NCBI GenBank assembly: GCA_040753675.1
Contig: JBFMEB010000009.1
Coordinates: forward strand, 3,407-67,406
Direction: 5' to 3'
DNA from: Candidatus Omnitrophota bacterium
Lineage (GTDB): Bacteria > Omnitrophota > Gorgyraeia > JAHJTE01
DNA: 64,000 nucleotides
The notes below the pieces were generated by a model. The model did not search any database. It was not told the origin of the DNA and saw only the letters and a list, made by a program, of their open reading frames with translations. Both the position numbers and the translations under genes were made by a program. Of the stretch, positions 24,801-64,000 are shown piece by piece; position 1 is the stretch's first letter; each line of letters starts with the position of its first letter.

Positions 24801-27800
24801 GGCCGAAAATCTCTGATGCCTTGAATAATTTAAGGGATGAAACAGGCGTTGGTAATTTCCATATTGAGTTTATTGGAGAGGGGATTAGTGATTATGTAGC
24901 TTCAGAAATTCATTCCCTACATCAGGCAGGCTTAGATATTGGCCAGAGTAACGAAGATTTAGTGAATTGGTTTGTTAACCGCTTTGGAGAGGAAGCAAGA
25001 GAAAAAGCGCAGAGAATGAGGAGAGATCAGCTTTTTGCTATTCAATGCCGTACTGCTGTAGTTGATACGATGCATAATGCCATACTGGCAAGGCAAGTTC
25101 AACGTTATATTATAGGTTATTCAATTGATGTACAGCCTCTAGCTAAAATTTTAACTATTAAAACCTCCAAAGAAAAGCAGATTGAGATAGACATAGCTGA
25201 TGTGCCGCAAGCACTCAAACCGACTGATTTACAAATTCAAGATGCTGTTACCAGGCATTTTAAATATTTAATAACCAGATGGCAGGAATTAAATCCTAAA
25301 AGTCCTCTTACCATTAATATAAGAGCGCTTTTCTTCAGGCAGGCATATACTCACTATGCAGCAAAACTTAATCGTCTGCGCGGCTCGCCCCTCGATACCC
25401 TTTGGCCCTCTTTTTACGCTGCCTGCGTTATTTATCCTGCCATAAGACAAAAAACACTTGAGTTAATTGACCTTTTCAAGCAAATATCCCAATTATCTAA
25501 CGAAAAACAAATAGACGACGTTATTAGCGGATTCATCTCAACTCTTACTTTAAAACGTCCGCTTACAGAGAAAATAATCTACGAGCATATCCGTAGGGCA
25601 ATCAATCCCAACTGGCAAAAGAAACCCAAACAAAAATCATCTCTTAGGCTTCCTGCGCAAGGCGAACTTTTCGGCGTCTCTATTCTTATGATTGGATTAG
25701 GCCTTGCCTTAGTTTACAATCTAATACATTCAGGGACAAATCCAGAAGTATTTGCTGCTGGTTTTGTCTTTCTTGCAAAGTCTGACAATCTGAAATCTAA
25801 ATTGGTAGAAAAATTAGAGAGGTGGAAAGATACAAACCTAGGCGGGACAATTTTAAATAGGCCATTATTGTTGGTAGGCGCAGTTATGAAATTACTTGCT
25901 GCTAATTCTTCAGTATTTTTGGCAATAATTATTTATAACACGTATTTTACCAACGAACCCTTATCAGACTTTAAACAAATTTTCTATCCTTCGGTTATTA
26001 TGTTATCTTTATTGGTTATGGAATCATTTGAGCCAGTGCAACATTTAATTTTTCCAAAATTTGCCAAACTTTTCTATCCTAATCTCTTTTACTTTAGCAT
26101 TAGTAATTGGATGGCAAGAATTTTGGGAGCAGAAATTCAAAAGGTTCAGAGAAACACTAAGACTGTTGAGGATCTCGATGACTTAGCATTAATTGACGAA
26201 ATTAAATTAAGACATTCGGTTAGATTTTTAAATACACAAAGATTCTTACCAAAGCATATTGTCAGATCAAAATTATCTAAGATACGGGAACTGATCATTG
26301 AGGTAATTGGCATTCTTATCGGAAGTGCCATCTTAAGTTTAGTGGCATTTTCTCTTGTATGGGTGATGGAGTCTAGAGAATCATTGATAGATACTTTTGG
26401 ATACCTATATTTTACGCCACTAGTTTTATTATTCGTAATTATTATATTTAATCTGGGCAATTTCGGTATCCATTTTATCTTTTATCATTTCCATCTTCTT
26501 TATGATGAAGGAAAGATTTTTGTAGGTGCACAGACTATAAATACAAATATTGATCCACGCTTGGTTACTAGGACAGGAGAAGAGACGTCTGAGGATGAAT
26601 TAAGAGGATTATTAGTAAGGTGGCTTTATAGTGTAGACGTAAAGCGCTCTTTAATTACAAGCTTGGATCATCTGATCAGTATACTTCAGGCCAAGGTTGA
26701 AAAATTCGGTGGGAGAAAAATCGGCCGGTTGGTTTTGTATGGGCACGGGGCTACGGGGACTTTTACATTTAATAATGAATTTTATCTTTGCCTATCTAAT
26801 ATGGATGATTTGGATGTGGTAGCTAAACTAAGTAAGATAGGCGAATTCCTTGTAGAAGGGGCAACTGTCGTAATTAGCAGTTGTTATGTCGGAGAAGGCA
26901 AGCGCGGCGATAGATTTATGATTGCTTTTGCTAGAAGAGTCTTTGGCAGTAAAAGAGGCGCATTGATTACCTATTCAGATTCTAATATGTGGCAGGGTAA
27001 AAGATATGAGTATGAGCCTTCTTATTTAGCCGTACCTAAAATTCAAGAGGTGGTTATCCATCGCATCGGACTTCTAGGCTACAAGACAACTCCTTTGGAA
27101 CAAAGGAATTTAGCAATAAGTCCACAGCATGATAGGGTAGTGCAGGAGATTCGAGGCCGGACAATAAGAGACATGCTTACTAGAGGGTTGTCGGTGATCT
27201 TACTTATGTTTGGGGGTTTATCTTTCATTTCTTCAATCCTTTGGCCACAGGCAAGCCTTGCCCCGCCGCTTTTAGCTCATAGCTCGTCGCTCATAGCTCA
27301 TAGCCCGCTTTTATCTAGCATCCAGCATCCAGCATCTAGTATTCAGTATCTGGCATCCAGTTTTCCGTTCCTCATCCCTGCCTCGCCGGCAGATGGATTA
27401 TCGGCCATAAGCTGTGGGCTGATTGCTGGCTTTATAGGTTCGATTTTCCAAAATCAACAGGCACAGTTTGCTACTATAAAAAGAGGCGATGGTTCTATTG
27501 AAGAATGGGAAAGAGGAAAATTAGTTCGAGCACGGGTGCCTTATCGGGGAGAATATCTTGAAATTGTCCGCGTCTCTAAAAGGCATCCGGATTCTTATGA
27601 AATTTGGTTTGCCGGCAAGCGTATAGATGAGGATTTGCCTTATGGATTTGCTTTTAAAGAAAGATTTGATTTTAGGAGAGGGCGCATTTTGGAAGTTGGA
27701 GCTCTATTCCTAAAACCCGATTATCGTAATAATGGCGTAGGTTTTGTGTTGGTTAAATGGCTCGCTCAACATGCGGCAGAAAGGGGCATAACAACACTTA

Positions 27801-36800: not shown

Positions 36801-39800
36801 TGTTAAAGGCGAGGACAATCCTTCTTGATGAAGACTTGATGGCAATGTATGAGGATAGAGAGCTTTCAGAACATGCCAGACAAGAACTTCTTGTTTTATC
36901 AAAGTCAAAAGAGACTGTTAAGCAACTTATCAGCACAATGTTAGAGCGCCATAAAGGTGATAAGGAAAGATTAGTATCTGTTGGCATAGCTATTGCTAAC
37001 TCTCTTTCTTATAGCGCTGCACTTTATGCAAGAGTTACCCAAAGACTAATGGAGATATCTCGGGATAATGGTGAATCAGCAGGGTTAGCCATTGAGATCT
37101 TAAAAGGTATTGGAGTTTTAGAAAACAGGATTACCAGTTTTGAAGAGACAAGAGAATTGATAGACAAACAAGTAAGCAGTGTAGATCCAAGCAGTCTGAG
37201 ATTTCCGGCATTTGTAGCAGAAATTCTATGCCCGGTTCGAGGGTTGCAATGTGTATACGATAAACCAAGGAGGAATTATAGCGCAGTTATGGTTCCACAC
37301 TTTTTACGTGATACAAAGGGGCCGGTTATGGTTAGGATAGACTGTTATTTTGACTCAAAATTAGGTTATTATGTCTTCAGATGGCAGAACGTACAGGGCA
37401 AAAAGAAAGAATATGTTTATTATCGAATTGTTAGTGATTCGATTGGGTTTGAACTATTCTTGCCTCAGTTTCCTAATTTAAAAGGTAATAAACATGAGAT
37501 TGCTGAACAAATTTCTAGTCAGGACCTAAATTCTAAGCAGTTTGGCGACAGGGAATATATTTTGCCAGCTAAGGATAGAGGGCTACTTACGTTCAACATA
37601 AATATAGGCAAGCGCTCTGTGACAGCTTGTATGGCAACAGGCGACATGAAAAGGGGAGTCGTAAAATTAAGAGTAATTCTTATCGAAGAGTTAGTATGTT
37701 ATTTATTCTTCCCAGTTCATAAAAGATATTCAAGTCATCAAATCCGAGACTATGAAAAAGAAGGCTTCCCCAGCATTTCTCGCGTTAAGCAGAATCCTTC
37801 TGATTATTTGTTACCGGTTAGCTTTGAGGAAATTGGGAATGCCGATCTTGAGCACTGGAGAATGGACAAGCCAATAATCTTTAAGAAAATCAGAGAAAAA
37901 TATCAGCGCGGCAAGCTTGCTCAAACACTTGGCGCATTTTCGGGAATGATAAAACCAGTAGAGATGCAGATTAATGAATATTTTGAGAGATACGGGAAGG
38001 CATTTGAAGAACTGCAAATGAGTCAGCATAATTTAACAAGTCCGAATGAGGCATTTTCTGGAATTTACAGAGAATTGGCTTCTTTGGGTATAATCCAGCT
38101 ATATTTACATAGACTAATTAATGATTATGATGTGGAATTTGGTATTGCACTGCAGGAAGTCAACCAAAACTTAGCATTAGTTGGCAATAGCTTACGTCTA
38201 TTAAAGCATAAAATAGATGATAAGCGGCAAATCGTCCAAGACGCAGAGTATCAAGTTTATGCCTTTAAGAACCGGCTCGGAATTAAACCCAAGTTTAGAA
38301 GAAAGAGTGGAAAAAGAACTAGGCCCGATGAGAGAAAACAAAAACAGGATGCGTTAGCTGCAGCGCAATTCATTATTAGGCTTATCGAATTTATTAAATT
38401 AGGCAGAATATTTAAACTTGGTAAAATAGTCACTGGTTTTGAAGAGCTGATTGCTCAAAGTGTAAGAAATGGTATAAAAACAGAAGAGGATTCAAATAGA
38501 TTAAAGACATTAACTACAACATTGCTTTGCTGGCTTTCGCCTTTAATCATTGGCTACTATACAAGAAGCATACCAATTATGGTTGGATTATTGGAAAAGA
38601 TTTCGCAGATAGAAGAAAGAGATTTTAGTGAGGTTATTAGGAGAGGGCAGGACATACTTTTAAACTTAGAGCAGATTAGGCCTTATTGTCGTCAGGTAGA
38701 ACTTTTAAAGCAAGCTTTAGATGAGTCATTAAAATGGTTCAAAGAGGTAGATAGATTAATTTCTGAAGCTTTAAAAAATTTACAAAATAAAATTAGAGGC
38801 AGATTAAGACAGCTTAATAGGAATAGCAAAGATTTGATTAAAAAAGCGCAAGACATATTCGGGATGCCCTTAAATACATTTGCCGAGAAAGAGAATTTTC
38901 TGAATTTAGCTTCAGATTGGTTAGAAGATTTTGAAATAGAAATTACTAAAAATAGATTAGGAGGCCTAACCAGAAAAAAAGGAGCGGCATCTTCCTTCCT
39001 TGATTCTCCATTTTTGCCGTTACTTTTTCTTGGTTTAGGCTTAGCAGGTTTTGGCGCATTTTATCTTTACAATTTACTATTCGGTTCCCAGGCCACTCTT
39101 GCTCCACCGGAATTAATATCACAAGCCATAACTCATCTGTCACATGTTCTAGTATCGAGTATCGAGCATCTAGTATCTATCATCTCCAATTTCCTTTCCA
39201 CCAACTACCAACTACCAACTACAAACTACTTCTTTTTGCCTTTTATCTTCGGCTCCATCTTCAGTCTCTACGATGGACTTAAAGATGATGAGCAGCCAGA
39301 TTTATTTAAAACCATAGAGGAATTATTACCATTTGCCAGGAATAGTTTTCATCCAGAAATCATAAATAAATTCCAGGAACTTTTTAATAAGGCAATAAGA
39401 AAAGCAAGGACTAATGCTGATGTAGCCTTGGCACTATCTGTAATATTAGAGGATTTATTACAACATCCGGGCAGTGGTTGTCTTAAAAACTTCTCTATAA
39501 GAACCTTAAGAATTTTGCATTCTTACTGGCCTGATATTGTCAGCGAGGCAAAGATGGCGGAGGTCTCTATTTCTAAGGCTTCATTTGAAGAAAGGCGTAG
39601 TAACCTTGAAAGAGAGTTTATAACATTTGTTAATCCCGCTAATGGGGAGGTTTTAGAGTTTAAGCATCCAAAATCAGGACAGGTTCAGAGATTTTGGCAA
39701 GGAAAGCGTGACCGTTTATTTTTCTATAAGATTCTAACAAGTCTATTATTAACAAACGGACAACTTATGGTTGAGGGCATAGAGTCTATAGGTGATGGCA

Positions 39801-53415: not shown

Positions 53416-53745
53416 ATGCAAGACGAGCGGCGCTTATTTGAGCGGTTGTCAACAAAGTTACCTGCAGTAGTCAGGGCACAGACTGATGGTTCGGTATTCG
53501 AGGCACAAATCCAGGATTTGGCAGCTAAAGGGCTTGGTATAACCAGCAGAGACAGGATTCCTCAAGAAGGCCGGGTGAATTTGAGAATAGAAATTCCTGG
53601 CCAGAAAAATTACCTCAATCTTGTCGGCCAGATTGTCTGGTCAAGAGAGAATTTTCCTGACGGCTGGCGAGCAGGAATTTGGCTAAGGGAACAGTCAACT
53701 GATTTGGTTAGTTTTTCGGTGCTTTTAGATAAGGCTAACCGCTAA
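53416..53745 (+). CDS. PilZ-domain protein
   Basis: ERRLFERLS and IQDLAAKGLGI motifs. The start sits 1 nt after the preceding stop, suggesting translational coupling. Confidence 0.6.
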   Translation: MQDERRLFERLSTKLPAVVRAQTDGSVFEAQIQDLAAKGLGITSRDRIPQEGRVNLRIEIPGQKNYLNLVGQIVWSRENFPDGWRAGIWLREQSTDLVSFSVLLDKANR

Positions 53746-53749
53746 AACG

Positions 53750-53800
53750 CAAAATCACTAATCGCAAAAACGCAAAATTATTATCTTTGCGGTTGCAAAA
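53750..53800. repeat. Word-repeat array (acgcaaaat / ttgcgg, direct + inverted)
   Basis: aacgcaaaatcactaatcgcaaaaacgcaaaattattatctttgcggttgcaaaag. Confidence 0.45.
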
Positions 53801-53804
53801 GTGC

Positions 53805-53833
53805 TTGACCCGCCTAAAGATTTATGGTAAATT
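53805..53833 (+). promoter_or_regulatory. Candidate promoter upstream of the GH94 gene
   Basis: -35 TTGACC (53805-10), 17-nt spacer, TGgTAAATT extended -10. Confidence 0.3.
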
Positions 53834-53892
53834 TTTTCTTTGCATCTCGTAATAGATAATCAATCTTAAAAGAAAATACCAAAATATTTTAA

Positions 53893-53935
53893 ATTATTTA
53901 TCAGTGATCATCTGTTCAGTTATCTGTGATCATCT
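53893..53935. repeat. Word-repeat array (atcatctgt x2) upstream of GH94
   Basis: tcagtgatcatctgttcagttatctgtgatcatctgtg. Confidence 0.5.
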
Positions 53936-53965
53936 GTGCTAAAAAGAAAGGAGCAAGTTAAAAAT

Positions 53966-56407
53966 ATGAAGTACGGCCACTTTAGTAAAGACAACACAGA
54001 GTTTATCATCACTGACCCGCTAACACCCCGTCCCTGGATTAATTATTTGACTAACGAAGAATATGGTTCAGTTATTTCTCACTGCGCCGGCGGATATAGT
54101 TTTTTTAAAGACTGCCGCTCTGACAGAGTCCTACGCTGGCTTCCGGAAAATTGGCAAACAGACAGGCCAGGGCGATATATTTATGTTAAGCAGAAAGCAG
54201 AAAGCAGAAAGCAGAAAGCAAAAGTTTGGTCCTTGACTTACCAGCCGGTGAGAGAAAAATTAGATTTTTATGAAGCAAGGCATGGATTAGGTTATACACA
54301 AATCAAAACAAAATATAACGGGACTTCTTCCGATATTACTTATTTTGTCCCTGTCCATGACCATTGTGAAATCTGGTTAGTAAATATCAAAAACGAAACT
54401 AAGCAAACCAAACATTTAGAACTCTTTCCTTATTGCGAATGGCTTTTAGGAGATTATCATTTGGAACTACGCTATCGCAATATTCTGAATTTATATAATC
54501 GTGTCTGGTTTGATAAGCAGCACTCTGCGATTTTTGCCAAAAAGACGGCTAGTTGGGGAGATATGGACATCCAGCCATTTGCCTATCTGGCATTTTTTGC
54601 TTCATCATTAAAAGTAGACGGCTATGTAACTCAAAAATATCCTTTCTTAGGCAGGCATAATACCTGTGAACGTCCGCAAATGATATTCGAAGATAATTTT
54701 AAAAATATTGATTTCTGTTCCGGAGAAGATGCAATAGGTTGCTTTAGGCATAAACTCACTTTAGCCCCCGGAAAAAATAAAGAATTTGTAATCATCTTAG
54801 GTCAGACCGAGGGCCAAACCACTGTTTCAAAATTGCTTACTAAATACCGCAATTTAAAAAATTCAAAGAAGGAATTAGCAGCGGTAAAATCCTTGTGGCG
54901 GATGAGGATTTTAGATAATATCTGGATACAGACTGCGGATAAAGACTTTGATTTTATGATGAATATCTGGGTTAAGTATCAGCTTTATATTTGTAATTTA
55001 TGGAGCCGCTCGCCGAGTTACTACCATGAAGGTAGTGGAGGAAGAGGCTACCGGGATTCTTGCCAGGATTCAGAAAGCCTTTGTTCGATAAATAGCGAGT
55101 TTACCCGTAAGCGCATATTGCATATTGCCTCTTTAATCCGCAAAGACGGCACTTCTGCTCCGGGTTGGGGCGATACTACTGGGCCGGCAGGCCATAGGCC
55201 GAATAAAGACCATCAGATTTGGCTTACCGCAACAGTGCATGCCTACATTAGGGAGACAGGCGATAAATCTATACTTAGCGAATATGTGCCATATTTGAAA
55301 GATAGATGGATTGGCGGATGGGAAGTAGATGTAAATTATAAAGGCGGGGCTACCACCGACGGAGAAGGAACGCTTTTAGAGCACTTAGAAAAGAATTTAA
55401 ATTTCTGCTTTAATGACGTTGGCGAGAGGGGTTTTCCCTTAATTGGCCATGCGGATTGGAATGATGCTATTGATGCAGCAGGCAAAGAGCACAAAGGCGA
55501 TAGCGTCTGGTTGGCGCAGGCTTTGGTAAGAAGTTTGCGGCTTTTTGCCGACATCTGCGAGCTTATCGGTGAGAAAGGCAAAAAAGAAGAGTTCTTGCAT
55601 AAAGCAAAGACAATGAGCGAGCGGATAAACGATGTTGGCTGGGACGGTGCCTGGTATAAGCGGGGCTTTACTGATGATGGCACAGTTTACGGCAGTAAAG
55701 TAAATAATGAAGGAAAAATTTTTATCAATACCCAGGCCTGGGCGCTTTTATCCGGGGTGAGCGATGACGGCGGTAAAACCAAACAGGTTGTTGATTCGAC
55801 AATGAAATATTTAGACGGCAAGCACGGTTTTGCTTTATTCTACCCCGCCTACAGTAAATTTAATCCTAAACTCGGACGTATCAGTATGTTTTCCGAAGGC
55901 ACAAAAGAAAATGCAGCAGTGTTTTGCCACGCTGCAACATTTATGATTGTTGCATTATTATCAGAAGGCTTTGGAAATATTGGCTATCAGTCAATGCGAA
56001 AACTTATGCCAAATTTACAGCAAGATTATGAATTATATAAGACTGAGCCATATGTCTGGTCTGAATATATTGTGGGGCCCCAGCATCCTTACCTATATGG
56101 AGAAGGAGCGTTTACCTGGATTACTGGCACAGCTGGATGGACTTTTATGGCAGCAACTGAGTGGCTGTTAGGCGCGCGCAGAGATTTTGATGGCTTAAGA
56201 ATAGACCCTTGTATTCCCAGTCACTGGAAACATTGCCGTATTAGAAGGCCTTTTCGAGGAGCAATATACGATATTGAGATTGAGAATCCAAGAGGAAAAC
56301 AAAAAGGCGTAAGCGCTGTTTATGTTAACGGCGAGTTGATAGACGGGAATTTAATAAAACCAGGACAAGCTGGAAAGACTTATAAAGTTAGAGTGGTGAT
56401 GGGATGA
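53966..56407 (+). CDS. GH94 glycoside phosphorylase (cellobiose/cellodextrin/beta-1,2-glucan phosphorylase-like)
   Basis: N-terminus KYGHFSKDNTEFIITDPLTPRPWINYL is typical of GH94. GHADWNDAIDAAG carries the catalytic DWND motif. About 810 aa. The ATG at 53966 has an AAAGGAG RBS; the track's GTG at 53936 is an alternative start. An in-frame heptamer tandem lies at 54191-54218. Confidence 0.75.
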   Translation: MKYGHFSKDNTEFIITDPLTPRPWINYLTNEEYGSVISHCAGGYSFFKDCRSDRVLRWLPENWQTDRPGRYIYVKQKAESRKQKAKVWSLTYQPVREKLDFYEARHGLGYTQIKTKYNGTSSDITYFVPVHDHCEIWLVNIKNETKQTKHLELFPYCEWLLGDYHLELRYRNILNLYNRVWFDKQHSAIFAKKTASWGDMDIQPFAYLAFFASSLKVDGYVTQKYPFLGRHNTCERPQMIFEDNFKNIDFCSGEDAIGCFRHKLTLAPGKNKEFVIILGQTEGQTTVSKLLTKYRNLKNSKKELAAVKSLWRMRILDNIWIQTADKDFDFMMNIWVKYQLYICNLWSRSPSYYHEGSGGRGYRDSCQDSESLCSINSEFTRKRILHIASLIRKDGTSAPGWGDTTGPAGHRPNKDHQIWLTATVHAYIRETGDKSILSEYVPYLKDRWIGGWEVDVNYKGGATTDGEGTLLEHLEKNLNFCFNDVGERGFPLIGHADWNDAIDAAGKEHKGDSVWLAQALVRSLRLFADICELIGEKGKKEEFLHKAKTMSERINDVGWDGAWYKRGFTDDGTVYGSKVNNEGKIFINTQAWALLSGVSDDGGKTKQVVDSTMKYLDGKHGFALFYPAYSKFNPKLGRISMFSEGTKENAAVFCHAATFMIVALLSEGFGNIGYQSMRKLMPNLQQDYELYKTEPYVWSEYIVGPQHPYLYGEGAFTWITGTAGWTFMAATEWLLGARRDFDGLRIDPCIPSHWKHCRIRRPFRGAIYDIEIENPRGKQKGVSAVYVNGELIDGNLIKPGQAGKTYKVRVVMG

Positions 56408-56914
56408 CCTTATAGAACTTATCTATAATTAAACCCTAAATTCAAAACTCTAAACTCTAAATAAACTCAAATGTCCAAAACCCCAAATTCAAAACCATAT
56501 GATTTAGGAGCCAGGACCCTTAAATTTGCTAAAAGAGTAAGGGATTATGTAAAAGCTTTACCAAAGACATTGGCTAACATAGAAGATGCTAAGCAGCTTA
56601 TTAAAGCTTCTGGTTCAGTTGGTGCCAATTATATAGAAGCTGAAGAGGCTTTGAGTAAAAAAGATTTTATAATGAGAATAAAAATTTCAAGAAAAGAGGC
56701 AAAAGAAAGCAGATACTGGTTAGAATTAACCGAGCACAGAGAAGATCAGAAGAGTGAGCAGGAGGCTTTAATTAATGAAGCGGTAGAATTAACAAAAATT
56801 TTTGGTTCAATAGTTGAACGATCCAAATAATTCTTTTGAGTTTTAGATTTTGCGTTTTGTATTTGTTTAGGATTTAGGTTTAGGATTTAGAGTTTATATT
56901 TAAAAAGAATAGAT
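56408..56914. mobile_element. Inverted-repeat-bounded cassette carrying the four-helix-bundle gene (IVS/MITE-like)
   Basis: The left arm 56415-56470 (aaaccctaaattcaaaactctaaactctaaat...) is nearly the reverse complement of the right arm 56845-56900 (...atttaggtttaggatttagagttta). A miniature ORF-less copy lies at 60297-60480. Confidence 0.5.
56471..56830 (+). CDS. Four-helix-bundle protein (23S rRNA intervening-sequence protein family, TIGR02436/PF05635-like)
   Basis: DLGARTLKFAKRVRDYVKALPKT ... GSVGANYIEAEEALSKKDFIMRIKISRKEAKESRYWLELT matches the family pattern (..IGANIAEG...S.KDF..KL.IA.KEA.ET.YWL.L). Flanked by long inverted repeats. Confidence 0.7.
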   Translation: MSKTPNSKPYDLGARTLKFAKRVRDYVKALPKTLANIEDAKQLIKASGSVGANYIEAEEALSKKDFIMRIKISRKEAKESRYWLELTEHREDQKSEQEALINEAVELTKIFGSIVERSK

Positions 56915-58210
56915 ATGAAGAGATTGTCTACATTGTTTATTATTGTTTGTTTTTCATTGAGTCTTATTGGCTGTGTTGCAGAAGATAGTGCTTCAGCCAA
57001 AAAAACCATAACCGTTTGGCATTGGATGACTGACCGGGAGGCGGCCTTTCAAGAATTAGCTAAACGCTACGAAGATGATACCGGCATAAAGGTTAATTTT
57101 GAACTCTATGCCCCTTCTGATATCTATAGCCAAAAGGTGCGCGCTGCTGCTCAAGGGATAACCTTGCCAGATATATATGGGCTTCTGGGCGAAAAGAGAG
57201 ATTTTGCCGCATTTATAAAAAGTGGCCACGTAGCAGATTTAAGTGAGCCAATGTTTGAGGAAAATGGCGCTTGGAAAGAAAGTTTCTTTTCTAAAGCTCT
57301 CGAGGTGGTGGAATTCAAGGAGAATAATGCCTATGGCATAAAGCCAGGCATCTATGGTGCTCCCATTGATATAATGAACATCCAGATGCTTTACAATAAA
57401 AAATTATTTAAAAGGGGAGGCCTTGACCCAGAGAGGCCACCCTTAAACTGGAAGGAATTTATTGAGGATATCGAAAGCCTAAAAAAAGTGGGCGCGCCGG
57501 GTTTGGTTTCAGGGTGGGGAGAGATTTGGATGATTGATTGCTTTGCCTCCAATTATGCATTTAATATTATGGGGGAAGATAAGGTTATCGCTACTTTAAA
57601 AGGAGAGGTACCTTATACGGATCCGGATTGGATTAAGGTCTTTTCATTATTTAAAGAACTGGCAGATAAAGATGCCTTAGCATCCGGCGTTGTGATAATG
57701 AAAAACAAAGTCGCTGAGCAGACTTTTGCTAATGAAAGAGCGGCATTTGCATTTAATGGTTCATGGTGTATTAATGTTTATGAGGGGATGAATCCTAATT
57801 TAGAGTATGCTCCATTTTTACCGCCAAAAGTAAATATGAAAAAACCTATGTATATTTGGGGAGGAGGCTCTTCATTCTCATTTCTGGTAAATGATAGATC
57901 TACTAAGAAATTAGAGGCAATAAAGTTTTTAAAGTGGTTAACCGATAAAGACCAACAGGCATATTTATCGAATGAAACTAAGAACTTACCTTCCAACAAA
58001 TTTGCGCTTGCCCAAATACCTAAGATTTTGGCTCAGTTTGCAGCGGGTATGGATAACACTACTCATCCTAGCATTTGGCCAGTGAGTGAGTCTTCGATTG
58101 TGATTGAGGCAATGGGTAAAGGCATTCAGTCAATATTGATTGGAGAAAAGACTCCTCAAGAGTTAGGAGAAGAATTGCAGGCTTTAAAAGAGAAAGAGTT
58201 ATTTAAGTAG
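56915..58210 (+). CDS. ABC transporter extracellular sugar-binding lipoprotein (family 1 SBP)
   Basis: Signal peptide with lipobox LIGC. The body is SBP-like (TITVWHWMTDREAAFQELAKRYEDDTGIKVNFE...). Confidence 0.7.
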   Translation: MKRLSTLFIIVCFSLSLIGCVAEDSASAKKTITVWHWMTDREAAFQELAKRYEDDTGIKVNFELYAPSDIYSQKVRAAAQGITLPDIYGLLGEKRDFAAFIKSGHVADLSEPMFEENGAWKESFFSKALEVVEFKENNAYGIKPGIYGAPIDIMNIQMLYNKKLFKRGGLDPERPPLNWKEFIEDIESLKKVGAPGLVSGWGEIWMIDCFASNYAFNIMGEDKVIATLKGEVPYTDPDWIKVFSLFKELADKDALASGVVIMKNKVAEQTFANERAAFAFNGSWCINVYEGMNPNLEYAPFLPPKVNMKKPMYIWGGGSSFSFLVNDRSTKKLEAIKFLKWLTDKDQQAYLSNETKNLPSNKFALAQIPKILAQFAAGMDNTTHPSIWPVSESSIVIEAMGKGIQSILIGEKTPQELGEELQALKEKELFK

Positions 58211-58227
58211 TTTCTAGTTAGTTCTGA

Positions 58228-58345
58228 AAAAATATTTTTTAACGCAGATATACGCAAATCTAACGCAGATTTTCGCAGATTTCTCTACTAAATATCTGCG
58301 ACCATTTGCGTTACATCGGCGAGAATCTGCGTTCAAGAAAAGGTT
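58228..58345. repeat. Imperfect palindromic word array (cgcagat x4 then atctgcg / tttgcgtta)
   Basis: taacgcagatatacgcaaatctaacgcagattttcgcagatttc ... atatctgcgaccatttgcgttacatcggcgagaatctgcgtt, between the SBP gene and the first permease. Confidence 0.55.
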
Positions 58346-58373
58346 TTTTAGAAATCTCTTCTAAATTAGACGC

Positions 58374-59405
58374 TTGATGATATTTAAAAATATCTATGTA
58401 AAATCAATCATAGTTACCTCCTGTATCATTTTAGCAGAATTAATTTATCAAAAATTCCACAACCTCAGATTCATATCTCCTCTGTTAATATTATTGGCAG
58501 TCTTGATTTCTATTATCCTCGTCATTAAAATTATTTCAGCAAGACAATTCAAAAGTTTTCTTTTTATAGTTCCTGCCTTAGCAATTTTTTCAATATTTTA
58601 TATTTATCCTTTTATAAAAGTTTTACAACTGGCTCACTACAGCTGGGATGGAATATTACCTACAATGAAATTCGTGGCCTTTTATAACTTTTTAGAGGTC
58701 TTAAAAGATAAAGTCTGGTGGCAGTCGATGTTCAACGCCGGTTACATTACCTTTATCGCATTGACCTTCCAGAATGCCCTGGCTTTGATTTTGGCATTAG
58801 CCTGCGATAGGCAAATGAAGGCAGGGAATTTCTACCGCGTTATATTTTTTATACCTCCGGTATTGTCAGAGGTCGTGGTGGGTCTGGTATGGCAGTGGCT
58901 GTACAACGCAGATTACGGTCTGTTAAACCACTGGCTTTACACAATAGGTTTCCCTAATCTTGCCAGGTCTTGGCTGTCTGATCCAAAGACCGCTCTTACC
59001 TGCGTGGCTATCGTGCATTCCTGGAAAGGTTTTGGCTGGGGATTTGTAATTCTCTTGGCTGGATTACAAACTATACCCCGCCAGCTTTATGAAGCTGCAC
59101 GTGTTGACGGAGCGAATACTTGGCAGGTATTTAAAAATATTACCGCGCCTTTGATGATACCCGTATTCGTGCTGGTGGCGATACTGACAGTGCTAGGTTC
59201 TATGCAGTCGTTTGTTTTAATACTTACTATGACAGACGGCGGGCCGGCATTTCATACCGAGGTGCCGGTAACCAGAATTCTAACTTCTATGATCGGCTCT
59301 TCTAGATTTGGGTATGCTTGTTCACAGAGTATAGTATTCGGTGCAATCCTCCTTGCGATTTCCTTTATACAGAAGAGGCTCTCCCAAAATATGAGGCAGG
59401 CATAA
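58374..59405 (+). CDS. Carbohydrate ABC transporter permease (MalF/UgpA-like)
   Basis: Six TM helices. EAA loop YEAARVDGANTWQVFKNITAPLM. Confidence 0.7.
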   Translation: MMIFKNIYVKSIIVTSCIILAELIYQKFHNLRFISPLLILLAVLISIILVIKIISARQFKSFLFIVPALAIFSIFYIYPFIKVLQLAHYSWDGILPTMKFVAFYNFLEVLKDKVWWQSMFNAGYITFIALTFQNALALILALACDRQMKAGNFYRVIFFIPPVLSEVVVGLVWQWLYNADYGLLNHWLYTIGFPNLARSWLSDPKTALTCVAIVHSWKGFGWGFVILLAGLQTIPRQLYEAARVDGANTWQVFKNITAPLMIPVFVLVAILTVLGSMQSFVLILTMTDGGPAFHTEVPVTRILTSMIGSSRFGYACSQSIVFGAILLAISFIQKRLSQNMRQA

Positions 59406-60244
59406 TGCTTAATTTTAGCGTAAAGAAAACAACTACAAACATCCTAGTTCATCTTTTATTGATTTCAGTGTCGATTACCTGTCTTTTCCCGCTATTGTGG
59501 ATGTTTGGTTCTTCTTTAAAGACTCAAGGCACGGTTTTTTCTGACTTGAGCATAATTCCTCAACATCCGCATTTCGAGAATTATATAAAAGCCTGGACTG
59601 ACGGGGGTTTCGGCAGGTATTTCTTTAATAGTTTAATATACACCATCGCTGTAGTGTTAGGTATAGTTTTGGTATCGTCGCTGGCCGCATTTGCGTTTTC
59701 GCGATTGGAATTTCCTGGAAGAAACGCATTTTTTATCATGTTTCTTGCCGCGATGATGATACCGCTGCCGGGCAGTTTTGTTCCTTTATATGTGCTTATG
59801 GTGAAACTTCATTTGGTCAATACGCGCTTAGGCTATTGTTTATGCCTTATTAACGTGGGGCTGTCTTTTAGCATATTTTTGCTTAAGACGTATTTTGATA
59901 AGATGCCTAAAGAGTTAGAGGATGCCGCGAGAATTGACGGTTGCAACAGATTGGGAATTTATAGACACGTGGCTCTGCCCTTTGCCAGGCCGGCTCTTGC
60001 AGTGGTAGTGGTTTTTAACGCCCTGAATGTTTGGAACGAATATGTGCTGGCTTTGATAATATTTAGTAGTAAAGACCTGATGCCTCTTCAACGTGGGTTG
60101 ATGATGTTTCGGGGAGAATTCCTGACTAATTACCCACTTTTGATGGCAGGGCTTACTATAGCGGCCTTACCTATAATTATCTTATACCTGTTGATGCAGA
60201 AGTATATTGTCAAGGGAGCAACTTCTCAGGTGGTATTTCCATAA
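59405..60244 (+). CDS. Carbohydrate ABC transporter permease (MalG/UgpE-like)
   Basis: The start ATG overlaps the upstream stop (TAATG). EAA loop LEDAARIDGCNRLGIYRHVALPFARPAL. The track start at 59318 is an upstream in-frame extension overlapping the previous gene. Confidence 0.7.
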   Translation: MLNFSVKKTTTNILVHLLLISVSITCLFPLLWMFGSSLKTQGTVFSDLSIIPQHPHFENYIKAWTDGGFGRYFFNSLIYTIAVVLGIVLVSSLAAFAFSRLEFPGRNAFFIMFLAAMMIPLPGSFVPLYVLMVKLHLVNTRLGYCLCLINVGLSFSIFLLKTYFDKMPKELEDAARIDGCNRLGIYRHVALPFARPALAVVVVFNALNVWNEYVLALIIFSSKDLMPLQRGLMMFRGEFLTNYPLLMAGLTIAALPIIILYLLMQKYIVKGATSQVVFP

Positions 60245-60296
60245 TGCCTTATCAAATAAATAAGGGTTTAATTCAAAAATTAAAGTGCAAAAATCT

Positions 60297-60480
60297 ATTA
60301 CATAAATTTATATAAACTCTAAACACTAAATTCTAAATCCTAAATAAATCCAAAATTCAAAACATAAAACTCAAAACCTCATTTGACCTCTCAGGCATAA
60401 AATGTCTTCATACGCTTTTGGATTTTAGGTTTTGGACATTTGAGTTTGTTTAGAGTTTAGGGTTTCGGATTTAGGGTTTC
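60297..60480. repeat. Miniature ORF-less inverted copy of the four-helix-bundle cassette (both IR arms + 5' gene remnant)
   Basis: 60297-60350 matches the reverse complement of the cassette's right arm. 60425-60480 matches the reverse complement of its left arm. The middle retains the reverse complement of tcaaATGtccaaaacc, i.e. the MSKT start of the gene, then a stop. Confidence 0.55.
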
Positions 60481-60589
60481 TAATTTTTACATTTTACATT
60501 GTCATTTTGATATTTAATTTTTGATATTTGCATTTATAAACCAAATGCAATTGTCATTTAGTTGACAAGGCACCATAAGAAAGGTATTT

Positions 60590-60622
60590 AATCTTGCTTA
60601 CGCCAAGATTAATTGTTATAAT
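60590..60622 (+). promoter_or_regulatory. Candidate promoter + palindromic operator upstream of the MFS gene
   Basis: -35 TTGCTT (60594-99), 17-nt spacer, extended -10 TGtTATAAT (60614-22). The palindrome aatcttgcttacgccaagatt (60590-60610) overlaps the -35. A second TTGACA lies at 60562. Confidence 0.35.
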
Positions 60623-60664
60623 TACCATATTTATCACTAATTCAATTACAAGAATGGAGATCAA

Positions 60665-62191
60665 ATGACGACACACCATGTCACCGCCCCCCAAGACCGC
60701 ATTCCTTTTTTTCAGAAATTCATATACAGTATAGGAGCATTTGCGAATACTGCCCAGGCAGCTTTTATCGGACAGATGGTCATTGTTTTAAACCTGGGGT
60801 TAGGCGTAAATCCCGCCTTAGTGGGTTTAGTCGGAGCCCTACCCCGTATTATTGACGCCATATCTGATCCTATAACTGGATACTTTTCTGATAATCTACG
60901 GACCCGTTGGGGACGCCGAAGGCCGCTTATATTCTTTGGCGCTGTTACCGGCGGAATTACTTACGCATTGATGTATCAGCTCTATAAGGGCCATAGCGAA
61001 GGTTTCTATGTCTGGTATTTCGGAATATTCCAGGCCCTTTATTTTATTGGGTTTACCTGTTTTTCCATTCCCTGGATAGCGCTGGGATACGAAATGACCC
61101 CTGATTATCATGAGCGCACACGCTTGCAGGGGGCTAGTAATTTTGTTGGCCAATTACCCTGGCTTATCGCTCCTTGGTGCTGGGCCATTATGCACAACCA
61201 GAACTGGTTCCCAGATATAGTTTACGGCGGAAGAGTTCTTGCTATCATTATCGGCAGTGTTATCATCGGTTGTGGTATCCTTCCTGCTATTTTTAATAAA
61301 GAATACTTCCACACCTTACCAAAACCTGATGTTAGGGGCGCTTGGAGCGTGACGAAAGACTTCTTTGCTGGGGGTTTCGTAACTCTTAAATGTAGGCCAT
61401 TCTTGAAGCTGTGCCTATTTACCTTACTGATCTTTGGCGGATTCATGTGCGCTTCAGCTTTTACCATCTACGTTGTTTTCTTCTATGTCTTTGGAAATGC
61501 TCCAGTGCTTGATCAAGCCTATGCAAACGGCGGTCGCCTGCTCGGTATCTATGGGACTTTTTCTGCTATTTGTACTATGGGAGTCATTTATTTAACCACA
61601 TGGCTATCTAGAAGGCTCGGCAAGAGAAATACATTTTTTATAACTCTGCCTCTTTCAATCATCGGTTACGCTTTGAAGTGGATTGGTTATAATCCTGCGC
61701 ATCCGTACTTACTTTTGGTCGCCGCTCCGTTCATCTCATTCGGTCTGGGATCACTTTTCACATTAGTCAGCTCCATGGTAGCTGATGTATGTGACCTTGA
61801 TGAACTTACTACCGAAACACGCAGAGAAGGCATGTTTGGTGCTATTTACTGGTGGATGGTAAAATTAGGAGTCGCGCTTTCATCGTTTATCTCCGGAATT
61901 CTACTGAATGCAACTGGTTTCAAAGTTACATTAGGGCTTGCTCAAACAACGCAAACATTATTAAATTTGCGGCTGTGCGATATCGGTATCCCGATTGTGA
62001 CCACTTTAATCGCCATTTTTGTTATTATGACTTTTGATATCACAGAAGCTAAAGCCTGTGAAATCCGTGTCCATGTAGAGCGCAGAAGAGGAGAAAGACG
62101 AGTAGAAGAAGAAAGACGCAGAGAAGAAAGACGAGTAGAAGAAGAAAGACGAGTAGAAGAAGAAAGACGAGAAGAAGAAAGACGGGAGTGA
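60665..62191 (+). CDS. MFS transporter, glycoside-pentoside-hexuronide (GPH):cation symporter family
   Basis: GYFSDNLRTRWGRRRPLIFFGAV is the GPH DRT..RWGRRRP signature. 12 TM helices. GGAGA RBS. The C-terminal ERRVEEERR low-complexity tail is encoded by an 18-nt tandem repeat at about 62090-62188, so the functional C-terminus is uncertain. Confidence 0.7.
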   Translation: MTTHHVTAPQDRIPFFQKFIYSIGAFANTAQAAFIGQMVIVLNLGLGVNPALVGLVGALPRIIDAISDPITGYFSDNLRTRWGRRRPLIFFGAVTGGITYALMYQLYKGHSEGFYVWYFGIFQALYFIGFTCFSIPWIALGYEMTPDYHERTRLQGASNFVGQLPWLIAPWCWAIMHNQNWFPDIVYGGRVLAIIIGSVIIGCGILPAIFNKEYFHTLPKPDVRGAWSVTKDFFAGGFVTLKCRPFLKLCLFTLLIFGGFMCASAFTIYVVFFYVFGNAPVLDQAYANGGRLLGIYGTFSAICTMGVIYLTTWLSRRLGKRNTFFITLPLSIIGYALKWIGYNPAHPYLLLVAAPFISFGLGSLFTLVSSMVADVCDLDELTTETRREGMFGAIYWWMVKLGVALSSFISGILLNATGFKVTLGLAQTTQTLLNLRLCDIGIPIVTTLIAIFVIMTFDITEAKACEIRVHVERRRGERRVEEERRREERRVEEERRVEEERREEERRE

Positions 62192-62198
62192 TAGTAGG

Positions 62199-64000
62199 AT
62201 GAAAATTCGTAGATACTCGATACTCGATACTCGATACTCGATAATTTATTTGCTAACGTTTTTTTTGCTAGCATCTAGCATCTGGCATCTAGCATCGAGC
62301 CATGCAGAAGTTCTTCCATCCACTGAATACGTGCGAAATGCCTGGGATGCGTCAAGTAAAAAGGACCTTGAGTCGTTGGAAAAGATCGTGAACACCTGTA
62401 TTGAAAACTATTCGGAAGAAGCATTAGAGCAGCAAGCCAGTTTGCATGCCCTTGCTACGAAAGATAAGGCACAAGATTATCCAGCTCTAAATGATGTAGC
62501 AACATGCTATTTTATTCGCGGCGAGGCAAATTTTAAAGCCGGCAAGTTAAAAGAAGCAAAAGTCGACCTTAAAGAAGTAATTGATAATTATCATTATGCT
62601 CAAGCTTGGGATCCGCGGGGTTGGTTCTGGTCAGTAGCCGAGAAGAGTCAAGCGATTCTTGATAAAATTAAAGTGATGGAAGAAGGAGAACTTACCCCTG
62701 GAAATTTAGAGACAAGACCACTTGAAAGACCCGCAACAAAATTGACACTTTATGATTCTGGAAAAGAATCAGTCGTAAATTATGAAAAATACGGAAAGTT
62801 TATTGGCAGGGGCAGCAAAGATTATAAATATGAAATTACTGACCAGGAAGGCCTGGTCCAGGCAGTGGGAGAAGGCATTTATCCGAATACTACGAGCGTG
62901 CGCTGGGATCCTAATTTCAGGAAGGCGATGAAGGCAGGCAGATTAGAAGGCAGTCATTGGGATTTTGTGTACACTCCTGATTTAGAAGCAAACTTTTATA
63001 AATGGGCCACGGCCAGTGAACCCGAAGGAGTAAAACTTTTTTATATCGGGCTGGCTTTAGAGCGGGCTGGCTTCATCGAGCATGCCATAAAAGCCTATTA
63101 TGCCATTGTGGTACATTTTCCTGCGAGTTACGGCTGGACTTATTGGCAGACGCCTTGGTATGTAGGACCAGCAGCAATTGGCAAGATAAAGTATTTGACT
63201 TTCCGGTATCCGAAGTTGGGTATAAAACTTGAAGGGGCAAAGGTGAGGATAATTAATGCCTTTGATAAGAATATTAGTAATGACCTGGTTATTGCTGACC
63301 CTGGCAAATTGGTTAAAAAAACTATGTTAGATAAGGTTAGTCTAGCGCAGACTAGCGAGAAGATTAAGGTAAAGGTGGTAAAGAAAATCGGGGGGACACG
63401 GATAAAGCTCGTTCAGTTCGATAATCGCCATTGGCGGCTCTACGTAAACTCTAAACCCTATATAATTAAAGGTATATCCTATGCGCCTACAAAGGTGGGT
63501 CAGAGTCCGGATGACGGGTCGCTCTCCAACTGGATGGATTATGATTATAACCATAATGGTCTCTGCGACGGACCATTTGATTCCTTTATAGATAAAAATT
63601 TGAATAATAAACAGGATAAGGATGAATTTCCTATCGGAGATTTTCAGTTGATGAAGAATATGGGCGTTAATACCATTAGAGTTTATCATCAGCCTTTTAC
63701 CTTTACGAAGGCCAACAAAAAACTCTTAAGGAAACTTTACGATGATTTTGGAATTATGGTGATTATGGGCGATTTTTTAGGTAAATATGCCATTGGTTCA
63801 GGAGCGAGTTGGTACGAAGGCACGGACTATGAGAATCCCGAACATCAAAAGAATATGTTAGATTCAGTTATTAAGATGGTGAATGAATTTAAAGATGAGC
63901 CCTATATTCTGATGTGGTTATTGGGTAATGAAAATGTTTACGGAATTGCGTGTAACGCCGATAAAAAGCCGCAGGCCTTCTTCGCGTTTTGCGATAAAGT
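62199..64000 (+). CDS. Secreted glycoside hydrolase, clan GH-A TIM-barrel (GH5/GH2-like), 3'-partial
   Basis: Open frame from ATG 62199 to the window end; the track omits it for lack of a stop. N-terminus MKIRRYSILDTRYSIIYLLTFFLLASSIWHLASSHA|EV is a signal peptide with an AxA site. The C-terminal region GVNTIRVYHQPF ... ILMWLLGNENVYG carries the GH-A NE(P) acid/base motif. Confidence 0.55.
   Translation, partial: MKIRRYSILDTRYSIIYLLTFFLLASSIWHLASSHAEVLPSTEYVRNAWDASSKKDLESLEKIVNTCIENYSEEALEQQASLHALATKDKAQDYPALNDVATCYFIRGEANFKAGKLKEAKVDLKEVIDNYHYAQAWDPRGWFWSVAEKSQAILDKIKVMEEGELTPGNLETRPLERPATKLTLYDSGKESVVNYEKYGKFIGRGSKDYKYEITDQEGLVQAVGEGIYPNTTSVRWDPNFRKAMKAGRLEGSHWDFVYTPDLEANFYKWATASEPEGVKLFYIGLALERAGFIEHAIKAYYAIVVHFPASYGWTYWQTPWYVGPAAIGKIKYLTFRYPKLGIKLEGAKVRIINAFDKNISNDLVIADPGKLVKKTMLDKVSLAQTSEKIKVKVVKKIGGTRIKLVQFDNRHWRLYVNSKPYIIKGISYAPTKVGQSPDDGSLSNWMDYDYNHNGLCDGPFDSFIDKNLNNKQDKDEFPIGDFQLMKNMGVNTIRVYHQPFTFTKANKKLLRKLYDDFGIMVIMGDFLGKYAIGSGASWYEGTDYENPEHQKNMLDSVIKMVNEFKDEPYILMWLLGNENVYGIACNADKKPQAFFAFCDK
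62205..62300. repeat. Word arrays gatactc x4 and agcatctag x3-4 (overlap the 5' end of the secreted GH gene)
   Basis: gatactcgatactcgatactcgatactcg ... tagcatctagcatctggcatctagcatcgagc. They encode the signal peptide ...LLASSIWHLASSHA. Confidence 0.6.

Follow-up and report, generated by a model that had tools for sequence, protein, structure and literature searches.

A palindromic cassette with a four-helix-bundle gene in an Omnitrophota operon: a probable mobile relative of 23S rRNA intervening sequences

Introduction

Intervening sequences (IVSs) in the 23S rRNA of Coxiella burnetii, Leptospira and Xanthomonas carry an open reading frame (ORF), S23p, in the loop of a stem. In Coxiella the IVS, of 428-444 nt, combines an S23p ORF with a stem of 28 bp and places three to four tandem heptamers just upstream of the ATG; RNase III excises it (PMC4990558). 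In 1993 it was proposed that IVSs are mobile elements whose ORF serves their mobility (PMC4990558; PMC2672173); for three decades neither the origin nor the function of IVSs and of the ORF conserved in them has been explained, and the mobile-element idea has had little support (PMC4990558). Here we describe a unit with the same protein family in its loop that lies outside rRNA, in a 64,000-nt stretch of DNA from a Candidatus Omnitrophota bacterium (assembly GCA_040753675.1, contig JBFMEB010000009.1; hereafter, the window). The unit, which we call the cassette, separates a GH94 glycoside phosphorylase gene from the gene of an ABC solute-binding protein. We consider it probable that the cassette is a mobile, IVS-like palindromic element with ORF-less derivatives resembling MITEs (miniature inverted-repeat transposable elements), and that it is carried by transcription of the host operon.

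The likeness to 23S IVSs extends beyond the protein. At ~467 nt the cassette is of similar size to the Coxiella IVS; its terminal complementary arms form a stem around the ORF; tandem heptamers stand directly upstream of the ATG, as in Coxiella, although the words differ (CTAAAnn in the cassette, GACAGAT in Coxiella); the Shine-Dalgarno sequence is weak or absent and the ORF lies in sense orientation within the host transcript; and short, ORF-less versions exist, as do the ~100-nt IVSs of Salmonella. The differences concern location, arms, selection and processing. The cassette occupies an mRNA operon spacer rather than helix 9, 25 or 45 of 23S rRNA, which places it outside the classical definition of an IVS. 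Its arms consist of ~65 nt of degenerate words with many mismatches, whereas the IVS stem is nearly perfect, and strong purifying selection acts on its ORF, in contrast to the reported decay of the ORF in Coxiella. Lastly, excision by RNase III is established for IVSs, whereas for the cassette it is a possibility suggested by analogy.

Results

The cassette is an insertion in a sugar-utilisation operon

Positions 56408-56914 of the window are the exact spacer between the stop codon of the GH94 gene (56407) and the start of the binding-protein gene (56915). The original prediction, made from the window's sequence, had placed an insertion here, and orthologous operons on three other Omnitrophota contigs (L139, L140 and L141, with binding proteins 84, 83 and 77% identical to that in the window) bear this out. 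All three keep the gene order PilZ-PilZ-GH94-SBP (solute-binding protein)-permease-permease-MFS-GH2 and have a strong ribosome-binding site right behind the GH94 stop codon, but their spacers between GH94 and the binding-protein gene measure 27, 9 and 0 nt, respectively, against 507 nt in the window. Given orthologous spacers this short, the cassette is an insertion: it entered the short spacer of a sugar-utilisation operon after this lineage had split from the sampled relatives. A base-by-base reconstruction of the exact empty site failed because the spacer has diverged too far.

Two further spacers of the operon are inflated relative to the orthologues, that between the binding-protein gene and permease 1 (163 nt versus 3-15 nt) and that between permease 2 and the MFS gene (420 nt versus 23-129 nt), and each contains a long hairpin. 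The hairpin that fills the first of these, at 58235-58340, is made of CGCAGAT/CGCAAAT words and their inverse (-43.4 kcal/mol, z -7.5) and is flanked by a possible imperfect direct repeat of 8-9 nt (TTCTAGTTA / TTCTAAATTA); its word type recurs in loci L003-L005 and L117. The hairpin in the second spacer is a relative of the cassette, described below.

Inverted arms enclose a gene of the 23S IVS protein family

Folding of the whole spacer pairs 56430-56465 with 56861-56896 in both the minimum free energy and the centroid structure, at a predicted -110.5 kcal/mol against -93.7 +/- 5.7 for shuffled sequences (z -2.97; 0 of 100 shuffles were as good). Folded on their own, the arms (56430-56494 and 56834-56896) form a stem of -38.1 kcal/mol, compared with -21.4 +/- 3.8 for shuffled arms (z -4.4). 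The arms therefore pair stably and beyond shuffled controls, in keeping with the inverted-repeat-bounded unit of the original prediction; the arms of about 55 nt that it described exist, but the arms-only fold extends them to ~65 nt. It had also noted their richness in ctaaa/tttag words. Indeed, the arms are built of CTAAAnn/nnTTTAG heptamers, with TTTAGGA and TTTAGAG among the words of the right arm, and Tandem Repeats Finder reports period-7 arrays of TAAACTC in one arm and TTTAGGA in the other, with the left-side arrays at 56430-56461. A 22-mer from the left arm (Table 1) matches the window four times with up to 3 mismatches, compared with 0.03 matches expected, and all four matches fall within the cassette or within a second element at 60314-60479.

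The arms are of low complexity, use a three-letter alphabet and form few G-C pairs, which inflates alignment identities. These properties would speak for the view that there is no element at all, and that an A/T-rich, low-complexity spacer has by chance produced an inverted repeat around an ordinary small gene. We rejected this explanation, to which we assign a negligible probability: the shuffle controls are exceeded, the orthologous sites are empty, the arms are conserved around homologues of the gene in other phyla, and near-identical second copies exist.

The enclosed ORF encodes a member of the 23S IVS protein family, as originally predicted. It matches PF05635 (E 3e-14; 53.6 bits, cutoff 33.8; model positions 9-103 of 106) and TIGR02436 (E 3.4e-20; 72.3 bits, cutoff 24; model positions 4-108 of 109), and the nearest solved structure, by sequence match, is 2RLD (E 2e-15, residues 14-118). 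An AlphaFold model has four helices, at low confidence (pLDDT 51.5), and we refer to the gene as the four-helix-bundle (4HB) gene. At E <= 0.01 the protein had no sequence-level match to the structure of Avd, and no match in either the PADLOC or the PHROGs model library. In the predicted fold an internal loop of the stem holds the 4HB start codon. The 40 nt 5' of the ATG contain no G and therefore no Shine-Dalgarno sequence, and we found no promoter-like site within 56408-56914. The best explanation for this layout is a unit of about 460-520 bp that consists of a word-built left arm, a gene for a PF05635/TIGR02436 protein of 117-121 aa, and an inverted right arm.

Table 1. Coordinates of the cassette, its parts, its second copy and its host genes in the window
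Feature	Position	Strand	Description
Whole cassette (left arm, 4HB ORF, right arm)	56430..56896	+	~467 nt; delimited by arm pairing, homologous cassettes and absence from orthologous operons L139/L140/L141
Left arm	56430..56494	+	~5 heptamer words (AAACCCT AAATTCA AAACTCT AAACTCT AAATAAA), running into the start codon and first 8 codons
Arm 22-mer CTAAACTCTAAATAAACTCAAA	56450-56471		Within the left arm, ORF-proximal part
Four-helix-bundle (4HB) gene	56471..56830	+	119 aa, pI 9.4; matches PF05635, TIGR02436 and 2RLD
Right arm	56834..56896	+	Inverted word array TTTTGAG TTTTAGA ... TTTAGGA TTTAGGT TTAGGATTTAGAGTTT
Second element, between permease 2 and MFS gene	60314..60479	-	Inverted, internally deleted, ORF-less copy
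Spacer left of cassette	56408..56429	+	Small local hairpin at 56410-56428 (-4.0 kcal/mol, z -3.9); no equivalent in orthologues
Spacer right of cassette, to binding-protein ATG	56897..56914	+	A-rich, in place of the orthologues' strong AAGGAG/AAGGGG ribosome-binding site
GH94 glycoside phosphorylase gene (upstream host gene)	53936..56407	+	PF17167, 6e-100
ABC solute-binding-protein gene (downstream host gene)	56915..58210	+	SBP_bac_8/1 match
Promoter-like site of operon	53805..53833	+	TTGACC-17-TAAATT; similar TTGACC...GGTA motif in L139 and L141

A second copy in the same operon has lost the ORF

A second, inverted copy 3.4 kb downstream of the cassette has lost its ORF by internal deletion, in the way that MITEs derive from full-length elements. 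Read on the minus strand, this second element retains both arms, the ATG with ~11 codons and a few codons from the end of the ORF; ~320 nt of the interior are missing. The left arm of the cassette is ~86% identical to the reverse complement of the right arm of the second element (60417-60495), and the right arm of the cassette is ~85% identical to the reverse complement of its left arm (60314-60380). These identities between elements exceed the arm-to-arm complementarity within either of them. On the + strand the second element folds at -48.2 kcal/mol (z -4.9). Loci L042 and L050 hold other products of internal deletion in which the two ORF ends likewise survive; in the three elements, ~11-17 codons remain at the start and a few at the end. 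We considered a further inverted repeat lying outside the second element but dropped it, since it is not significant (27.5 versus 21.4 +/- 3.8).

Near-identical cassettes occupy unrelated loci in one genome

A genome labelled Thermodesulfobacteriota, GCA_030017685, has two full cassettes ~40 kb apart on one contig. One (L002) lies between rml genes and the other (L222) between a PD-(D/E)XK gene and a gene for leucyl aminopeptidase (peptidase M17). The two are ~96% identical over ~590 aligned columns and near-identical over the element of ~545 nt, and their proteins differ by 1 residue; the identity breaks off sharply at the ends of the element, and the loci are otherwise unrelated. The deleted copy L050 lies on another contig of the same genome. 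A locus orthologous to that of the aminopeptidase and 94% identical to it (L223/L224) has an ORF-less hairpin of CGAAA words in this spacer (2320-2470), the outer arms of which are homologous to the outer arms of the L222 unit (2950-3500). In L222, then, a 4HB cassette of the CTAAA type lies inside an older CGAAA hairpin, and the compound unit was afterwards copied to the rml locus. Nesting of this kind in the tip of a hairpin resembles the insertion of 23S IVSs at the tips of rRNA helices. Insertion into pre-existing palindromes as a general rule was rejected, however, because the flanks of 115 elements are not complementary (4.86 versus 4.96 of 10).

The family is widespread, and most copies lack the ORF

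Further copies, for which the original prediction had suggested a search, exist both in the window, as described above, and in large numbers in other genomes. Homologues of the 4HB protein with 76-84% identity occur in metagenome-assembled genomes (MAGs) labelled Omnitrophota, Thermodesulfobacteriota and Deltaproteobacteria. Wherever the context was fetched, the 4HB gene lies between unrelated, co-directional host genes and is bracketed by arms of the cassette type; examples of host pairs are rpoD and a beta-helix protein gene, rmlB-like and rmlD-like genes, and a pilin gene and a TPR protein gene. These homologous cassettes are 453-520 nt long. Protein similarity alone (61-82% identity) served to choose 74 usable metagenome loci. 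A strong inverted repeat is present in 61 of them (score >=36, where shuffled flanks score ~18), and the units measure ~420-520 nt. About one third of the close homologues carry annotations of 134-136 aa, since their reading frame stays open through the left arm as far as an outer ATG. The 4HB family as a whole has 6004 representatives at 50% clustering.

We also scanned the arm 22-mer CTAAAYTCTAAAYAARYTCAAA, from the ORF-proximal part of the left arm, against one genome per species in GTDB. It matches at least 120 stretches, whereas about one is expected by chance (an estimate that assumes uniform base composition), and several of the matches sit on contigs of 90-650 kb; 12 more lie in IMG/VR contigs. 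Among the matches listed, the lineages are Omnitrophota, many Patescibacteria, Planctomycetota, Dehalococcoidia, Nitrospirota, Bacteroidota, Desulfobacterota, Gammaproteobacteria, Aminicenantia, Verrucomicrobiota, WOR-3, Saganbacteria and others. The 22-mer thus occurs in MAGs of at least 12 labelled phyla or candidate divisions, mostly as ORF-less hairpins of ~130 nt. Only 10 of the 132 arm-selected loci, again among the matches listed, have the 4HB ORF; most of the others consist of an ORF-less hairpin 107-205 nt long whose arms measure 45-70 nt, and a minority are solo arms. Several solo arms, which are word arrays without an inverted partner, come from IMG/VR loci (two sites in L013, one in L016, and others), and they lie directly upstream of the ribosome-binding sites of opposite-strand genes on contigs classed as viral.

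In the copies inspected we found no cargo between the arms other than the 4HB gene. Long interiors that looked like cargo proved to be either two hairpins flanking a host gene (L089 and L011) or GC-rich palindromes nested in the loop. Small palindromes of this sort are nested in the loops of the word hairpins L042, L087 and L117. Unrelated MAGs also share a similar, perfect GC-rich palindrome, CCTGCCTGCCGGCAGGCAGG, in their intergenic spacers (L139 at ~1990-2010, L082 and L095). Contigs of 0.5-2 kb hold many of the homologues, and many of the cluster representatives are cut short, matching residues 1-75 to 1-90 only; both observations fit frequent decay of copies and a repeat at which assemblies break.

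The original prediction had also raised the possibility of relatives within 23S rRNA. None was found: 0 of ~210 related loci lie in a 23S gene, and BLAST with E. coli rRNA detected no 23S in 137 + 80 related loci, the only rRNA nearby being the 16S gene close to L074 and L084. Rfam 15 gave no match at gathering score in the window, and the window contains no rRNA; in 53700-60700 there was only a chance snoRNA match (E 0.65). At L074 (2357-4934), from Paceibacter (Patescibacteria), an arm copy lies ~490 nt upstream of the 16S rRNA gene, and that gene carries an insertion of ~1.2 kb at E. coli position ~788. The hairpin of L043 (~2996-3139) is flanked by sequences that, by eye only, resemble the ends of tRNAs.

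In Flavobacterium columnare, gmk and nadD are separated by a gene annotated as "four helix bundle protein", and the spacers are ~35 nt long (PMC5524665, Table 5), so the habit of occupying operon spacers extends to a cultivated bacterium. The literature that we searched, which mostly excluded subscription journals, contained no account of the heptamer words, of 4HB/S23p outside rRNA, or of these repeats in Omnitrophota. Taken as a whole, the cassette family looks like an operon-dwelling counterpart of 23S rRNA IVSs.

The protein is under purifying selection and the arms behave like conserved ends

Comparison of the 4HB ORF with homologues from different genomes gave dN/dS values of 0.06-0.17 with saturated dS, from which it follows that the lineages are old and that the protein has a function. 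Between copies, arm identity is 65-90%, versus 40-55% at synonymous third positions of the ORF. Part of this identity reflects low complexity, but neutral sequence would still not be expected to keep the word pattern. The words change together with the protein subfamilies: relatives at 76-82% protein identity mainly have C-T-AAA / TTT-A-G words, and most of those at 64-70% have C-G-AAA / TTT-C-G words. The two arms switch together, in that C-T-AAA words on the left face TTT-A-G words on the right in 56 of 58 cases, and C-G-AAA words face TTT-C-G words in 126 of 134 (Fisher 5e-37, for copies that are not phylogenetically independent). Left arms are more similar to other left arms than to their own right arm. 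The arms behave like conserved transposon ends, with complementarity maintained at the level of word type.

ORF-bearing copies are mostly co-oriented with their host genes

By ORF-based gene calls, ORF-bearing copies share the strand of their ORF with the upstream neighbour in 47 of 50 cases (p 4e-11). With the downstream neighbour they share it in 43 of 52, and the median gaps are 13 nt upstream and 33 nt downstream. This bias, together with the absence of a promoter or Shine-Dalgarno sequence, argues that the ORF relies on read-through transcription from the host, and such dependence would account for the nearly constant co-orientation with the upstream gene. ORF-less copies show both orientations (18:27). 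Of 51 such copies, however, 45 sit in spacers of co-directional genes, 5 in convergent spacers and only 1 in a divergent spacer, against a background of 76%, 12% and 12%, respectively, in those loci. This indicates that the elements persist only in transcribed spacers. In the window, the promoter-like site upstream of GH94 (Table 1) is the likely source of transcription through the cassette.

Other repeats and genes in the window

Two short repeat tracts lie upstream of GH94, and the orthologues have neither: direct repeats of CGCAAAA words with a short inverted partner at 53735-53800 (a weak fold, z -1.3), and an array of 3.7 copies of ATCTGTGATC at 53900-53938, just before the GH94 start. 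The MFS-type gene (60665-62191) has an 18/33-nt tandem repeat at its 3' end (62087-62188; five copies of AGAAAGACGAGTAGAAGA). Tandem arrays of other heptamers (GATACTC, CTAGCAT, ATCCAGC, TAGCTCA, TCTAGTA and ACCAACT) lie after the MFS gene, at 62212-62300, and at 24052-24075, 27273-27360 and 39148-39229. The last three are inside a single ORF of 17,065 aa that takes up 80% of the window (353-51550, + strand); they are in frame and encode stretches such as SSIQHPASSIQ. In L141, a gene for a 15,650-aa product is in the matching position, upstream of the PilZ genes and the GH94 operon.

Discussion

We propose that the cassette is a mobile, IVS-like palindromic element, probably carried by transcription of its host operon and accompanied by MITE-like, ORF-less derivatives. 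Lacking both a promoter and a Shine-Dalgarno sequence, the cassette would depend on read-through transcription from the host operon. The strong purifying selection on the 4HB protein suggests that the protein is made and is needed by the element, and its basic character is that expected of a nucleic-acid binder; the arms would then be cis-acting sites for propagation. In the polycistronic RNA the arms could form an imperfect stem of ~60 bp that encloses the start of the ORF. The original prediction had envisaged such a stem as a possible RNase III site that uncouples upstream from downstream expression, and the predicted stem, at -37 to -45 kcal/mol, is long enough for that enzyme, making cleavage plausible. 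A double-strand-specific RNase, such as the RNase III that acts on 23S IVSs, would cut the stem, separate the GH94 and transporter segments of the mRNA, and release the ORF RNA. This RNase III step, with the separation of the two mRNA segments, we regard as possible, if on balance slightly doubtful. Any effect on the operon is probably a by-product, and not the reason for the presence of the element.

Several observations weigh against this proposal. Among 115 elements we found no target-site duplication, with direct repeats in an element's own flanks averaging 2.69 nt as against 2.64 nt between flanks of different elements, and no target motif at the insertion site. No copy has a transposase, integrase or reverse transcriptase gene inside it, such that mobility is shown by its products alone and not by its mechanism. 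The arms of a given element are no more complementary to each other than to the arms of different elements (49.6 versus 46.3), and an element's own arm is its best partner in 1 of 52 elements; hence we rejected co-evolution of an element's two arms, because only the family-level word switches co-vary and compensatory evolution of the stem is unsupported. The strand on which the stem folds better also fails to point to RNA. Because a G-U pair becomes a C-A mismatch on the opposite strand, a stem selected in mRNA should fold better on the transcribed strand. For ORF-less copies between co-directional genes the sense strand is the better one in 21 and the antisense strand in 24 (n=45). Of 57 full cassettes, 40 fold better on the strand antisense to the ORF, the mean difference being 3.4 kcal/mol (p 0.001). 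Finally, the orientation counts rest on crude gene calls, the taxonomic breadth of the arm 22-mer rests on MAG labels, and, because related copies are not phylogenetically independent, our p-values are optimistic.

The strand comparison also bears on what the stem is for. A sense-strand advantage for the host was dropped after the even split among ORF-less copies and the reversed sign in full cassettes. The asymmetry points instead to selection against an over-stable mRNA stem, or to a hairpin formed at the DNA level. If the stem acts as a host-adaptive processing or stability element, the view that the original prediction stressed, it would be kept because cleavage by RNase III, or protection of 3' ends, sets different mRNA levels for GH94 and the transporter, with the 4HB gene as a passenger; the REP (repetitive extragenic palindromic) hairpins between malE and malF of E. 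coli are a model for such an effect. The predicted stems are indeed stable, the elements occupy almost only transcribed spacers (50 of the 51 ORF-less copies are downstream of one gene or more), and the third long hairpin of the operon comes right after the binding-protein gene, a classic site for differential expression. Nonetheless, we think a host-adaptive role unlikely. The mRNA-strand stem is, if anything, the weaker one, which leaves selection for a host regulatory role unsupported. Moreover, the three orthologous operons work with spacers of 0-27 nt and without any of the three hairpins, and the same sequence occurs between unrelated genes in many phyla. Sister lineages that run the operon without the insertion, and copies in such varied places, fit a selfish element better than a host regulatory device.

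An alternative possibility is that the substrate for mobility is a folded single strand or cruciform of the arms in DNA, with the RNA stem incidental or selected against. This is compatible with the proposed mobile element, and differs from it only in the nucleic acid that the stem serves. The bottom strands of integron attC sites and the ends of IS200/IS605 elements are folded single-strand substrates of this kind. In addition to the significant antisense advantage in full cassettes, ORF-less copies oriented by their arm motif show the same trend, which is not significant (33:21); the absence of target-site duplications is shared with single-strand transposition systems; and left arms that resemble other left arms more than their own right arm are what one sees for transposon ends. 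On the other hand, no HUH, tyrosine or serine recombinase gene is associated with the elements, there is no insertion-site motif, and the asymmetry is small, takes no account of shared ancestry and could be inherited from the family consensus. We therefore hold a DNA-level substrate as a possible but rather improbable reading.

A third route would be retro-mobility. Avd, of diversity-generating retroelements (DGRs), is a homologous small, basic, four-helix-bundle protein, and PF05635, members of which resemble Avd, is the commonest Pfam match in DGR loci (PMC10053308). The 4HB protein would recruit a reverse transcriptase encoded elsewhere, and cDNA of the stem-bounded RNA would enter transcribed spacers. 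The basic nature of the protein, the requirement of ORF-bearing copies for sense transcription and the confinement of the elements to transcribed regions all fit such a route. Against it, no reverse transcriptase gene or template/variable repeat pair adjoins the cassette or any other copy examined; the 4HB gene stands alone between housekeeping genes, its neighbours including rpoD, rml genes, pilins, PD-(D/E)XK and peptidase M17; ORF-less copies lie in either orientation; the PADLOC library returned no match for the protein; and there is no poly-A, priming or adenine-mutagenesis signature. We consider retro-mobility very unlikely.

The ORF-less copies of 107-205 nt resemble MITE-like palindromes such as Correia/NEMIS, ERIC, RUP, Nezha and the Rickettsia palindromic elements. 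Correia hairpins in mRNA are cut by RNase III. The second element of the window and the other ORF-less copies share with MITEs their terminal inverted repeats, long stem-loops, multiple copies, intergenic position and co-transcription, as well as their derivation from a longer element by internal deletion (PMC3184786). They differ from MITEs in having no target-site duplication, in having a full-length partner that encodes a 119-aa four-helix bundle rather than a transposase, and in having arms that are arrays of 7-nt words; in addition, the arm sequence of the cassette spans many phyla, whereas a MITE is found in one genus or family. Structured intergenic palindromes are also a feature of REP/REPIN sequences with their RAYT genes and of integron attC cassettes, and the latter resemble the 4HB cassette in carrying promoterless, co-oriented small ORFs. 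REP/REPIN and attC hairpins are folded single-strand substrates, and REPINs lack target-site duplications. However, we saw no RAYT or IntI gene with the cassette. Furthermore, the 4HB hairpin brackets its ORF on both sides, whereas an attC-type hairpin follows the ORF; 4HB elements occur one per operon spacer and not in arrays; and REPINs are lineage-specific, whereas the word-arm elements cross phyla.

The occurrence of a gene-in-hairpin architecture at many sites outside rRNA makes the mobile-IVS idea testable, and the idea draws support from the empty sites, near-identical second copies, deletion derivatives and purifying selection described here. ORF-less hairpins of this family are common in MAGs of Patescibacteria, Omnitrophota, Planctomycetota and Dehalococcoidia, where they probably break assemblies and stay unannotated. 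Long stems in very short intercistronic spacers must affect the processing of operon mRNA and translational coupling. An element that has only a gene for a 119-aa helical bundle, and that makes no target-site duplication, would need a new mechanism of mobility. As a tentative suggestion, which may well be wrong, the 4HB protein could be a propagation factor that binds the heptamer arms and copies or inserts the hairpin with the help of universal host enzymes, with occasional landings in rRNA helices giving rise to 23S IVSs. There is likewise a substantial, if minor, chance that the cassette represents a class of mobile element in which a four-helix bundle is the only protein. If the 4HB protein is indeed a propagation factor, a large orphan protein family would gain a function and IVSs would gain an origin, a question that dates from 1993; there would also be a class of mobile elements without a recognisable transposase, the ORF-less derivatives of which lie in the operon spacers of many phyla, including Patescibacteria and Omnitrophota.

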